This document shows positions 6,371 through 63,799 of a DNA stretch of 64,000 nt, in pieces. How positions within the stretch are numbered: the stretch's first letter is position 1; every line of letters begins with the position of its first letter. The notes beneath the pieces are model-generated. The model ran no database searches. It was given only the letters and a program-made list of their open reading frames with translations, and was not told the DNA's origin. The stretch lies in the NCBI GenBank assembly GCA_963921275.4, contig OZ001293.3, forward strand, positions 2,592,001-2,656,000, written 5' to 3'. The position numbers and the translations under genes were made by a program. Origin of the DNA: an uncultured Hormoscilla sp. GTDB taxonomy: Bacteria > Cyanobacteriota > Cyanobacteriia > Cyanobacteriales > Desertifilaceae.

Positions 6371-8285
6371 TCACAGATTGGTATACTTAAACTTAGAGCC
6401 ACAAGCTACAGGAATCCGTCTCGCTGCCCCACGCCATAACTCCAATGCCACATCGGACAAATTTTGACCATCCGCCTGGAGCATCCGCGAGATCATGCTA
6501 ATATTGCCAAAAGACCAAAACAAGCCCGCCTCCAGCAGATACGGCTCGTTGGTTTCGGCATGCACTCTGAAGTCATACAGGGAGTAATCGCGACCGCCCA
6601 AAGCTATATGTGCCCGCTTGGCTGCATCAGAGATTTTCTCCCATAAAGAAGGCGTGACATTCCCCGGACAGACGGGTTTCACTGCTGGCTTGTCAGGTTG
6701 TTTCCTGGGCAGTCCGTCCCCTTGCAGGTCATACTTATCACGTACAGTTCTAATGGGATTGTCCTTGGTGACTAAATACTCGATCGTCGGCAGCACCCAT
6801 AACTTCCCCTCACGTTCGACTACCCCCACGCGCAGTTCCCGTCCGGGGATGTAATCTTCTACCAACAAGGTCTCGTCATGTTCAAACCCCACCCGCAATG
6901 CTTCAACTATTTGATCTTCTTCCCAAACCAAAGTCAAGCCCAAAGAATTATCTTCCGAGTTCGGCTTCACCATAAATGGGGGCTGCATGGTCACGGTATC
7001 CCCCTGGCGCACAACTTGGGCCTTGGCCACCGGGACACCAGATGCTGACACGACGCTTCTGGTTTGAGCTTTGTTAGTTGCCAGGGCAGTACAACTAGGT
7101 GGCGACCCCACTACTGGTAGCCCGAGGATGTCCTCGAAGAATCCACGGAAACTAATCATCCCTGGGACACAGAACATATGCGGCACTACTACATCCACCT
7201 CCGGTAGCCCCGCGATCGCCTCTTGGAGGGGCATCTTCTCTGATGGATGGGGTCGAGCCGGGAATCGCTTCCCGACCCTCCCTTGAGGAACCGGACTTGC
7301 GATTTTCACCGCATCCGGCTACTGGGTACTAGGCCCTTTTCATAGGTAGACTTAATAGGAATTACTTCCGTTAGCCCTTGCCGCCTGTCTTTTCTTCCCT
7401 TTCCTGGTTTAGCGAGTGGTTGTTCTGATAACCGTTAGTATCACCATTTTCAAGTCAGTTTTACCAGTTATCCATACCTTATCCTCCACTTGCGTTTCGG
7501 ATTAGTTCCGTGGCTTTTTAGGATTACTCATTCCAGCAGCTTCCTAGTATCACCGACCCACGTCAGCGCTGGCTACCCAGCATCATCTACATTACTGTAG
7601 ATGTTATCCCAGGAATTACCCCGGGCATTCGCTTCTTGGGCCATCCCTCCCCCCGTGGCTTGCGCTTAACATCTAACTTGTCCTGATGGACAGCACACGA
7701 GAGGTTACTTCGTTCCCTAACAACATTTCGCGATACCTTTAGGTCCACACTATACCCCGGGAGCTATTTGAGTACTATATTAGCCAGAGTCTAAAACTAA
7801 TACTAGCTACCATTTCCTTTTTAGGCCAGCGCATATAGCCTTATTTCGCTGGTTCCTTATAACGAGGCTTGCACATGTTTGCCTGCTCTAACCTTGGATA
7901 TCTTTCCTAGCGGCGTCACCGGCTTAGGCTGCCAGTTATCCTACATTTGAGTCCTCGCTTAGCACCACGATGATGTCGCTTCGTAGCACCGAGGACCGGT
8001 GTCACCCCCGTACCTGGGGGGAGGGGAATTTAACCCCCATGCGGTCAGAGTTCCCGGCTAATGAAACCGGGCTAGCGTTCCGTGTTTGACCACGTTAGGC
8101 TAGAACGAATCGCACAGACTGTCTAAGGATGCACCTAGCTGCCAAAGACCATCCGGGTGTACCACGGCGTAGTAGCTACTGACACCAATTGGTTGCACTA
8201 CTTCCCTTGCGTAGATTACCGACAGGTTGTAGTAGAAGTCGGATACGCGAGAACCTGCTAGGTGCAAAACTCGCAAGCAAGGCAT
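6371..8285 (-). CDS. mysD: D-Ala-D-Ala ligase-like MAA ligase, copy 1; exons 8285-8116 and 7244-6371, 347 aa if spliced
   Basis: Exon 1 MPCLRVLHLAGS..LDS joins exon 2 SEKMPLQEAI..VVPHMFCVPGM..KPNSEDNSLG..YSLYDFRV..EAGL. Total 1044 nt in frame. Lies in a mysABC context. Confidence 0.85.
7245..8115 (-). mobile_element. ORF-less group II intron, main family, copy 1 (871 nt), in mysD1
   Basis: 5' end GTGCGATTCGTTCTAG. Domain V AGCCGGATGCGGTGAAAATCGCAAGTCCGGTTC. Domain VI ends ...CTCGACCCCATCC. Confidence 0.93.
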
Positions 8286-8342
8286 TGTGTCTGATATCAT
8301 CACCAATTTTTCTGTTGTACTTGAGTTTGCTCACATATCATA

Positions 8343-8423
8343 TTAAGGGAAGATGTTTGTTTATCTTTGCTGAAAAGCATTGCCACTCCATCAACAATCA
8401 TATTAGCAGCCATGACAGGAAGC
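8343..8423 (-). pseudogene. Short relic of a sodium:solute symporter 3' end
   Basis: TTTGTTTATCTTTGCTGAAAA..ACAATCATA closely resembles 13772-13850, the end of the symporter that precedes mysD2. Confidence 0.6.
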
Positions 8424-61222: not shown

Positions 61223-61795
61223 AGTAACTCAGTCGTAATGGGTGAATTTGCAATTACAGCAGGATCGGTAAAGCTTTACGATATTTTAAAATTTTCTTGT
61301 CATATGCGGACAAGACAGCCATCTGTCTATCCCAAGAAAGCAGAGCGATCCCAACGGGATCACTCTACCTCAAAATCATGCTAATTGAAAATGGCGATTG
61401 CGCTGCATGCACGAAGCGCAAGTATTTATACTTATATTATTCCCTAACGCTTACTGCCAAAGGCTTCCGGATCTAGAACATCGGTCCAGTAGCACAAATT
61501 TTGGGTAAAGTGATTATGGCTCCTTGGGAGGTCCAGGGAGAGGGCCAGACGAGAAGATGTTGATTTTCCGTTGATTCACAGATGTTTGAATTTGTCAAGT
61601 ATTATTAATGGACCGATGTCCTAGGCACCTTCTCACGCCCAGCAGTCACCGTAGGTTGGATTTGGCAACGTTACCCAACCTACTGCGATCGCCCTTTTGC
61701 TGGGGCCATATTCACTCTTTTGCCCAGAAACCAGGTTTTTTGGAAAAACCTGGTTTCTTAATGCAAAGCGATCGGGCAGACTTCTCCAACCCACT

Positions 61796-63799
61796 CTAAT
61801 AATAGTAATACCAGTTTCCAGGTTTAATGCCATTAAGCCACCAGCGGAGCAAAGACCCAACAACTTCCACCTCAATCTCTTGTCCTTTGCGCCGTAAAAT
61901 CGCGTAGGGACTATAGGCTTCGCTGATATCCATACATTGGTGAGAGCCTTCCTTGCAAAAGGCGACAAAGGCAGGAATAGCTGCTCCCTGAGAATCCCAA
62001 TAAATTTCGCTCTTCTCCCGCCACTCCCAGAAAGCCTTCATAACTGTCTGGTGATTCAGTCCTAGCAAATTGATTGGGTCTTTAGCTGACCATTTAGCTT
62101 TGAATGCTGCCTCTAAATCTGGAGTTTCTAGCACTGAGAATACATAGTGCTCGTGGACCTCATCGCGAGCCTCATCGTTCCAGTACTGGGCTATGAGTAA
62201 TGTTGCTGAGTTAAGTTGAGGGTATTTTTCAAAACAAGCTTTAACCCAATTTGACATAGGAATCAATAATTCGCGCTCTTAGTTGTGCTGCTTCCTATTC
62301 ACTGTATAGGTGGATGGGGTCGAGCCGGGAATCGCTTCCCGACCCTCCCTTGAGGAACCGGACTTGCGATTTTCACCGCATCCGGCTACTGGGTACTAGG
62401 CCCTTTTCATAGGTAGACTTAATAGGAATTACTTCCGTTAGCCCTTGCCGCCTGTCTTTTCTTCCCTTTCCTGGTTTAGCGAGTGGTTGTTCTGATAACC
62501 GTTAGTATCACCATTTTCAAGTCAGTTTTACCAGTTATCCATACCTTATCCTCCACTTGCGTTTCGGATTAGTTCCGTGGCTTTTTAGGATTACTCATTC
62601 CAGCAGCTTCCTAGTATCACCGACCCACGTCAGCGCTGGCTACCCAGCATCATCTACATTACTGTAGATGTTATCCCAGGAATTACCCCGGGCATTCGCT
62701 TCTTGGGCCATCCCTCCCCCCGTGGCTTGCGCTTAACATCTAACTTGTCCTGATGGACAGCACACGAGAGGTTACTTCGTTCCCTAACAACATTTCGCGA
62801 TACCTTTAGGTCCACACTATACCCCGGGAGCTATTTGAGTACTATATTAGCCAGAGTCTAAAACTAATACTAGCTACCATTTCCTTTTTAGGCCAGCGCA
62901 TATAGCCTTATTTCGCTGGTTCCTTATAACGAGGCTTGCACATGTTTGCCTGCTCTAACCTTGGATATCTTTCCTAGCGGCGTCACCGGCTTAGGCTGCC
63001 AGTTATCCTACATTTGAGTCCTCGCTTAGCACCACGATGATGTCGCTTCGTAGCACCGAGGACCGGTGTCACCCCCGTACCTGGGGGGAGGGGAATTTAA
63101 CCCCCATGCGGTTCAGAGTTCCCGGCTAATGAAACCGGGCTAGCGTTCCGTGTTTGACCACGTTAGGCTAGAACGAATCGCACAGTCTCCAGAAGGATCT
63201 CCCTCTAGACAATCTTTAGCTATTTGTTTAATTTCATATTCCTTAAAGCTCCTCAGAGATTGTGGCGTGATTCCATCCTGATGAGGACGCCACATTTTAC
63301 CAATAATTTCAACTTCAATGTCATCACCCAGGCGACGGAGAATGGCATAGGGAACAAAGTCTTCCTTAACATTATTTTTTGAGGGAGACTCATTTTTGCA
63401 AAATGCAGCGAAAGCAGGAATTGCAATTCCTGCTTCATCCCAAATTAATTTGTAGTTGTGCGGTAATTTGACTTTTTGATTTTCCGATCGCAAACTGCGC
63501 ATTACTTTGTCAATTTCCTCGCGATCGTGACATGTAAATACTGGCAGATTAACTAAGTCTGTGCTTAAGTGATATTTTGAAGTTAGACCAGCGGACCAAT
63601 CGGGGTTTTCCAGTAATGAGAATATGTATTCGTCATAGACTGCGTCATGTTCCCACTCATTACAATACTCAACGAGCAACACAATAGACTGAAGCTGGCT
63701 GTACTTTTTAAAGCAAGCGGCTGCAAATGGCTTGACCCAATCTTCTATTAGCTTTGCCCGTAATTGGGCTGTTTCTTCTGCTGTGTACATGTATTTCAT
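61796..63799 (-). pseudogene. Hypothetical tandem two-repeat protein, intron-split, second repeat with stop and frameshift
   Basis: Both repeats contain CF.KY.QL, AIPAF.AFCK, PYAILRR and EVE..G. Spliced junction GD|YLYSE* aligns with KYMYTAEE of repeat 1. Confidence 0.65.
62312..63183 (-). mobile_element. ORF-less group II intron, main family, copy 7 (872 nt)
   Basis: One-nt insertion relative to the other copies. Sense, junction T|AC. Confidence 0.93.

Follow-up and report, generated by a model that had tools for sequence, protein, structure and literature searches.

Near-identical group II introns without an open reading frame lie sense in living and decaying genes of a Hormoscilla cyanobacterium

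When a group II intron is found repeatedly inside the genes of a bacterium, each time in the orientation of its host, has this distribution been shaped by selection, by the mechanics of insertion or by chance? The question is raised by a 64,000-nucleotide (nt) stretch of DNA from an uncultured Hormoscilla sp. (assembly GCA_963921275.4, contig OZ001293.3, positions 2,592,001 to 2,656,000 of the forward strand; hereafter the window), in which the Rfam model RF00029 for group II intron domains 5 and 6 (D5-D6) matched at eight loci. Seven copies of one intron family, here called the main family, score 44.4 bits each in this search, the gathering score being 40. All six of its intragenic copies, on both strands, lie sense in their hosts. 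The original prediction had counted six of the seven copies as sense inside genes and had read this as a frame-preserving bias; the tally is correct, and five of the hosts can be checked against homologues, but the sixth, that of the copy termed c55k, is unverified as a gene. As argued below, the sense pattern does exist, but chance is not safely excluded as its source.

The seven copies (Table 1) are 99-100% identical to one another by repeat finding and alignment, and their differences amount to four substitutions and a single 1-nt insertion in 6,097 nt (7 x 871), which implies that the family was mobilised recently. Five copies lie on the minus strand and two on the plus strand. The unit is 871 nt long (872 nt in c62k) and runs from GTGCG to CATCC, an A always being the first base of the 3' exon. 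Its 5' end, GTGCG in all seven copies, fits the GUGYG start of group II introns; an intact D5 hairpin beginning with the AGC triad, followed by D6, is visible in the Rfam alignment, and the fold of the intron has a z of -4.1. The model RF01999 (group-II-D1D4-2) matched weakly, with 22 bits against a threshold of 36 (E = 0.042); with the PDB relative of the neighbouring intron-encoded protein described below, this is a lead towards the chloroplast-like (CL/IIB1) class. No reverse transcriptase (RT)/maturase domain was found in the open reading frames (ORFs) overlapping the copies, and the unit of 871 nt is ORF-less.

Group II introns usually end in AY, a few nt past the bulged branch A in D6. 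The main-family unit, as defined with the help of homologues, ends in ...CCCCAUCC and hence in CC rather than AY. The Rfam D5-D6 consensus stops at …CAU (AU), 2 nt before the real 3' end CAUCC (for example at 22765-22775), and the predicted bulged GA of D6 sits 8 nt before that end. Two other boundaries were considered and rejected: an end at the Rfam-consensus …CAU leaves 2 nt over and is excluded by five homologue-checked junctions, and with an 872-nt unit GTGCG…CATCCA the frames of the mysD genes fail to rejoin. A scan of contigs of other genomes with a 30-nt intron motif revealed at least three loci in Hormoscilla metagenome-assembled genomes (MAGs), carrying relatives 73-79% identical to the main family. 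The 3' ends of relatives read UAAU (in a variant intron at 3446-4238 of the window), UAAC (in the MAG locus L001) and UACC (in L002). None of these MAG loci contributes a data point on orientation, L002 being intergenic between co-oriented ORFs, and L001 and L003 being cut by contig ends or shortened. Fragments of related group II introns stand at both ends of the contig that carries L001 (4,046 nt); in these cyanobacteria, short-read assemblies are probably interrupted by introns of this sort, with the consequence that copy numbers in MAGs would be underestimated. A megablast search of a plasmid collection with the main-family intron returned no match, and nothing relevant was found in the literature on group II introns in Hormoscilla, on such introns in mycosporine genes (titles and abstracts), or on Hormoscilla pseudogenes.

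In all six intragenic copies, the reading frame runs through the junction once 871 nt are removed, and in five hosts, all of them co-oriented with the intron, the junction is free of gaps when compared with uninterrupted homologues. This bears out the earlier claim that excision restores the frame. The joined products of the two mysD-like genes show no gap against 12 of the 120 listed homologues, and their junction reads …LDS/LSEKM… (the slash marking the point of insertion), as it does in P0001, P0009 and P0015; the junction peptide LDSLSEKMPL that had been proposed was reproduced in silico. The first of the two genes, which is recognised by Pfam PF07478 and the NCBIfam Ddl models, is intact once the 871 nt are removed. 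The exons of these paralogues are about 88% identical to each other, and their introns are identical and occupy the same codon; both encode ATP-grasp ligases and belong to a duplicated symporter-EamA-ligase cassette. The product of queG, whose 5' exon spans positions 1-251 of the 337 of TIGR00276, has no junction gap against 8 of 150 listed representatives, nor does the C-terminus of the Ca-binding protein against 12 of 120 listed homologues. In the gene for the two-domain hypothetical protein, consecutive residues of two homologues (204 and 205 of P0272, and 102 and 103 of P0273) flank c62k in a tblastn comparison. Insertion occurred without duplication or deletion of the target site in these five hosts, and likewise in the 793-nt variant intron.

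The two remaining copies have less defined surroundings. The open frame that holds c55k found no family support in Pfam (searched up to E = 5; best E = 0.19), in NCBIfam (no match) or among PDB sequences (best E = 0.78). Only features of the ESM-Atlas language model rate it as PAS-like (score 0.91), although its sequence would also suit the PAS motif. A degenerate RT-bearing intron begins nine codons on, and seven codons after that the frame ends; the two introns thus stand side by side within one short open frame. The DHQS-like gene at 19860-21224 points away from copy c22k, which lies about 680 nt upstream of it, and in neither orientation does any frame stay open beyond 37 codons on either side of the c22k junction.

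Does the restoration of a host frame point to splicing, or to an orientation bias? The variant intron at 3446-4238, which contains internal deletions, is instructive in this respect. It interrupts sodium:solute symporter gene 1 (minus strand, 5240-4239 and 3445-about 3014), in which it is the sole lesion seen, and it has an EBS1 (exon-binding site 1) of its own, ATTTTC, matching the 5' exon GAAAAT. Deleting exactly 793 nt restores the frame of the symporter gene against its paralogue, although the variant lies antisense. Frame restoration is therefore a sign of clean insertion by reverse splicing and not of splicing or bias, and the description of a bias as frame-preserving falls away.

The sites themselves follow a clear rule. 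The main-family ribozyme carries an EBS1 of AGACUC (AGACTC) and an EBS2 of AUAAGG (ATAAGG), which at each of the seven copies pair with 9-11 of 12 positions in the 13 nt upstream; T is found at -1 and A at +1 at every site, giving the consensus target CCTTAT-N-GAGTYT/A. The seven copies occupy six target sequences, with 0-2 changes each. When the window, freed of its introns, was scanned for look-alike sites (EBS1/EBS2 pairing over 12 positions, T at -1, A at +1), 13 sites with at least 10 pairs were found, of which 6 are occupied, and 79 with at least 9 pairs, of which 7 are occupied. The main family may be near to filling the best of its targets in the window. The 72 unoccupied sites with at least 9 pairs comprise 32 sense, 27 antisense and 13 intergenic ones. 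Because these show no strong preference for the sense orientation, target availability alone does not yield the all-sense pattern, and a bias of this kind, 32 sense against 27 antisense sites, was set aside as too small.

How firmly, then, does the orientation depart from expectation? Taken alone, six of six sense copies give a two-sided P of 0.031. The mysD copies share one target sequence in paralogous genes and are therefore not independent trials; with the paralogues merged, five of five sites are sense (P = 0.0625). A null based on the unoccupied sites, in which the probability of a sense intragenic insertion is 32/72 = 0.44, gives P = 0.032 for at least 6 of 7 copies and P = 0.063 for at least 5 of 6 after merging. 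It is possible, if doubtful, that there is no true bias at all, and that the intron inserts wherever EBS/IBS (intron-binding site) pairing allows in a gene-dense, decaying genome. The six of six would then be inflated by the double counting of paralogous targets and by the counting of the c55k frame, which is without family support, as a gene. The coding fraction of the intron-free window, about 0.80, and the merged site-based P agree with such a reading, as does the variant intron, which lies antisense: all group II elements together number 7 sense and 1 antisense (P = 0.07), or 5 to 1 when counted by host (P = 0.22). On the other hand, zero antisense copies of the main family is the least likely outcome under this null, and among the sites with at least 10 pairs, the intron occupies 5 of the 7 sense ones, neither of the 2 antisense ones and one of the 4 intergenic ones (Fisher P = 0.10). 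The orientation bias of the original prediction is hence observed as a count of six out of six, but its P rises to 0.063 against the site-based null once the paralogues are merged.

We would give an even chance to the explanation that the main family is an ORF-less intron mobilised in trans, which enters DNA by reverse splicing guided by EBS/IBS pairing, and whose all-sense pattern most likely reflects survivorship helped by chance. The family would be an ORF-less derivative of a cyanobacterial group II intron lineage, and its excised RNA would reverse-splice into DNA at sites of the above consensus, pairing EBS2, EBS1 and the A at +1. Copying of the RNA would fall to an RT/maturase with an HNH domain that a related ORF-bearing intron at another place in the genome provides in trans. 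Reverse splicing would add the intron and no further bases, which is why every host frame reappears on deletion in silico, whichever way the intron points. Sense copies would be removable from the host mRNA when the maturase is present and, being the least harmful, would last longest; copies would persist where harm is least, that is, sense in genes, in dispensable or dead genes, and between genes. Such survivorship would hold even in a genome in which many genes, several of the hosts included, were already decaying. What the element is, where its boundaries lie, how it picks its targets, its clean insertion, its orientation and the lesions of its hosts are all observed, whereas mobilisation in trans, splicing in vivo and a causal role of selection in the orientation are the steps that we infer here.

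The only intron-encoded RT/maturase (intron-encoded protein, IEP) of the window belongs to the degenerate intron next to c55k, whose D5-D6 is matched by Rfam at 53155-53231 (56.9 bits). Most of its domains I-III are lost, about 90 nt of the 5' ribozyme remain, and the IEP is split by a frameshift and a TAG into RVT_N, RVT_1+GIIM and HNH pieces (Pfam). Its best PDB relative is 6me0_C (E = 3.8e-52), which we take to be the TeI4h protein of T. elongatus. Since the copies are ORF-less and the only IEP of the window is broken, any splicing or mobility would need a protein encoded elsewhere. To this extent the dependence on a trans-acting maturase that had been put forward stands, whereas the organelle-like layer of spliced mRNAs attached to it has already been described in Trichodesmium erythraeum (PMC4649490).

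Several observations weigh against survivorship of spliceable copies. First, pseudogenes account for three of the five verified hosts, or for four of six with c55k included. The queG frame is closed by a TAG 21 codons past the junction, where the best homologue has W; the Ca-binding protein gene has a premature TGA 33 codons upstream of c28k; and the two-domain gene contains, past the junction, an in-frame stop followed by a frame change near 62245-62250. Together with the early end of the c55k frame, these are the further lesions in four hosts that had been noticed before, and they were all found again. Broken genes make up 4 of the 6 hosts against about 5 of 37 non-host, non-mobile genes by our own count (Fisher P = 0.012). 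Second, if the divergence of the introns (5 changes in 6,097 nt) is used as a clock and 23-35% of changes are assumed to be disabling, the hosts should have gained 0.9-1.9 disabling lesions since insertion, whereas four are seen (P = 0.012-0.13, a range that reflects these assumptions and the inclusion or exclusion of the intact mysD genes). The clock is rough, as gene conversion could hold the copies identical. Nevertheless, it suggests that the intron entered some hosts after they had lost their function, and on these selection for orientation would not have acted. Third, the variant, a relative of the main family, has been retained antisense in a symporter gene that is intact in other respects. 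Fourth, the numbers are small and not independent, with P between 0.03 and 0.09 depending on the null. Finally, with a 3' end of CC, the splicing chemistry of the main family, as far as its sequence tells, is not textbook. The purging of antisense insertions, one of the two causes originally offered, is consequently weakened by the pseudogene hosts, the excess of lesions and the persisting antisense variant.

Hosts that were possibly dead at insertion also keep alive the other kind of cause, a mechanistic strand bias, which we consider unlikely. Here the ribonucleoprotein would prefer transiently single-stranded DNA, either the lagging-strand template, which is the sense strand where a gene runs co-directionally with replication, or, in transcribed genes, the non-template strand, and sense copies would arise without selection. 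Sense insertions in hosts apparently already dead, where selection on orientation should be absent, are what such a bias predicts, and there are precedents: several intron types, ORF-less ones included, are reported to show a replication-strand bias with an insertion-bias score of 2-5 (PMC8919778), and En-minus introns are described as priming from fork strands (PMC4424553). The copies in the window, however, are found on both strands within 64 kb (5 minus, 2 plus) and follow the orientation of their hosts rather than one replication direction; the related IEP has an HNH endonuclease domain, so that fork-dependent priming is not required; and neither the intergenic c22k nor the antisense variant fits a transcription-coupled rule. 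GC skew was set aside as a guide to the direction of replication, since the strand composition of genes and introns confounds it. It is quite unlikely, in our estimation, that the sense-only pattern is both mechanistic and genome-wide, with a trans-driven intron selecting the sense strand of living or dead genes and about half of its best sites (6/13) filled. Very improbable, finally, is a route through mRNA, in which the intron would reverse-splice into a host transcript, be reverse transcribed and recombine into the gene. It would produce sense copies only, and would account for those in transcribed pseudogenes as well, but c22k is intergenic without an open frame, the variant is antisense, and the mobility of such introns is described as reverse splicing directly into DNA (PMC2882425).

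Table 1. Coordinates of the intron copies, their hosts and other features of the window
Feature	Position	Strand	Description
c7k	7245..8115	-	871 nt; sense in mysD-like gene 1; identical to family reference
c12k	12680..13550	-	871 nt; sense in mysD-like gene 2, same codon as c7k
c22k	21904..22774	+	Intergenic; one substitution
c28k	28318..29188	-	Sense in Ca-binding beta-repeat protein gene, 13 codons before native stop
c46k	46282..47152	+	Sense in queG after codon 262; one substitution
c55k	54897..55767	-	Co-oriented with 83-codon open frame; two substitutions
c62k	62312..63183	-	872 nt, extra A after position 71; sense between two domains of hypothetical protein gene
mysD-like gene 1 (D-Ala-D-Ala-ligase family)	6371..8312	-	5' exon down to 8116, 3' exon 7244-6371
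mysD-like gene 2 (paralogue)	11791..13747	-	Intact once intron removed; 94% identical to uninterrupted P0001
queG (epoxyqueuosine reductase)	45496..47317	+	In-frame TAG at 47216-47218
Ca-binding beta-repeat protein gene	28276..31702	-	804-codon ORF, TGA 29288-29290, 33 codons, intron, 13 codons
Two-domain hypothetical protein gene	61820..63799	-	Intron between domains
c55k open frame (putative host)	55768..56018	-	83 codons
Variant intron	3446..4238	+	793 nt, about 82% identical to main family; antisense in sodium:solute symporter gene 1
Degenerate RT-bearing group II intron	53155..54873	-	23 nt downstream of c55k, same frame
DHQS-like gene	19860-21224	-	Mycosporine-type cluster
Short O-methyltransferase	16574-17113	-	Mycosporine-type cluster
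ATP-grasp mysC-like gene	15280-16547	-	Split over two frames; mycosporine-type cluster

Besides group II elements, which occupy about 13% of its length, the window contains petC/petA and a mycosporine-type gene cluster (4197-21224, minus strand), both of which identify the organism as a cyanobacterium. This cluster holds two diverged symporter-EamA-ligase cassettes. Although the mysD exons look intact, the mycosporine pathway may no longer function. Beside the split mysC-like gene, broken genes without an intron are the EamA transporter 1 (in-frame stop, 5347-6252), a choice-of-anchor/phytase/PhoD gene spread over three frames (32764-36566) and a HAD hydrolase over two frames (47435-47942); this segment of the genome looks to be in active gene decay. 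Within the Ca-binding protein gene, at 29535-31036 (minus strand), a unit of 528-534 nt is present three times in tandem, the repeats being 93-99% identical. An insertion sequence element with DUF4096 and DDE_Tnp_1 ORFs is present in two copies, 99% identical, at about 1269-2142 and about 22997-23870 (plus strand), and at 38209-40163 (plus strand) a gene for a DNA methyltransferase (N6_N4_Mtase) stands ahead of one for a restriction endonuclease that is weakly NotI-like, the two forming a probable restriction-modification pair.

Among the matches listed, the closest named protein homologues of the window come from Okeania, Hormoscilla, Symploca and Trichodesmium, and it is with Trichodesmium that the comparison is closest. 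In T. erythraeum, 17 group II introns, ten of them ORF-less and many in protein-coding genes, are reported to splice in vivo, dependence on trans factors having been shown by heterologous expression, an arrangement that the authors call typical of organelles and unusual for bacteria (PMC4649490). Both organisms are filamentous cyanobacteria with many pseudogenes and with introns in coding genes, many of them ORF-less and served, or in the window presumably served, by splicing factors in trans; splicing in vivo is documented there, whereas the present system is known from its sequence. The window, moreover, holds one near-identical family, with seven copies in 64 kb, and its hosts are mostly non-essential or already broken. 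The concept of protein-less introns in coding genes with a maturase acting in trans is thus already established, going by the account of Trichodesmium in PMC4649490, and the window adds a new case from a different cyanobacterium, one that is young and dense.

The other close parallel is TeI3 of Thermosynechococcus elongatus, whose ORF-less introns are described as mobilised by 'driver' IEPs (PMC2882425). There, too, one ORF-less lineage exists in many near-identical copies moved by the IEPs of related introns, targets are chosen almost wholly by EBS/IBS pairing, and insertion next to or into other introns occurs (PMC2882425). Few TeI3 copies, however, lie in genes, most being intergenic, in insertion sequences or in other introns (PMC2882425), whereas 5-6 of the 7 copies in the window are in coding sequence, and the 3' end of the family is CC; no thermophily is implied by the likeness. 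More generally, bacterial ORF-less introns are described as rare and as occurring nearly always in genomes with related IEP-encoding introns, and most bacterial introns as lying outside housekeeping genes, which cyanobacterial CL/ML introns do occupy (PMC4424553). Organellar introns are likewise ORF-less, reside in coding genes and rely on proteins encoded elsewhere, but they are old, diverged and largely immobile, and sit in essential genes (PMC4424553); the main family is young, near-identical and evidently mobile, and is found mostly in dispensable or decaying genes. Cyanobacteria are among the genomes richest in group II introns, with about 30-100 copies in Arthrospira and more than 100 in some species, and the CL-type expansions of Cyanobacteriota similarly include ORF-less copies and some replication-strand bias (PMC8919778). 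In the part of that paper available to us, an analysis of intron orientation relative to host genes was not found.

Taken together, these findings add to the Trichodesmium and Thermosynechococcus cases a very young family of high density, with a clear target rule and with hosts at varied stages of decay. If the introns splice, two ligase genes of the mycosporine pathway would be expressed only by way of splicing that relies on a protein encoded elsewhere, and such a splicing-dependent arrangement is the one thought to have preceded organellar and spliceosomal introns. Were seven copies per 64 kb to hold across the 6.9-Mb contig, several hundred copies would be present, which is above the bacterial loads given in the papers cited, as far as these were available to us. 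The system is a convenient one in which to ask whether selection or the mechanics of insertion governs intron orientation, a question that the window alone cannot answer. If the sense-only pattern did prove to be mechanistic and genome-wide, this Hormoscilla would offer a living model of the colonisation of coding regions by introns.

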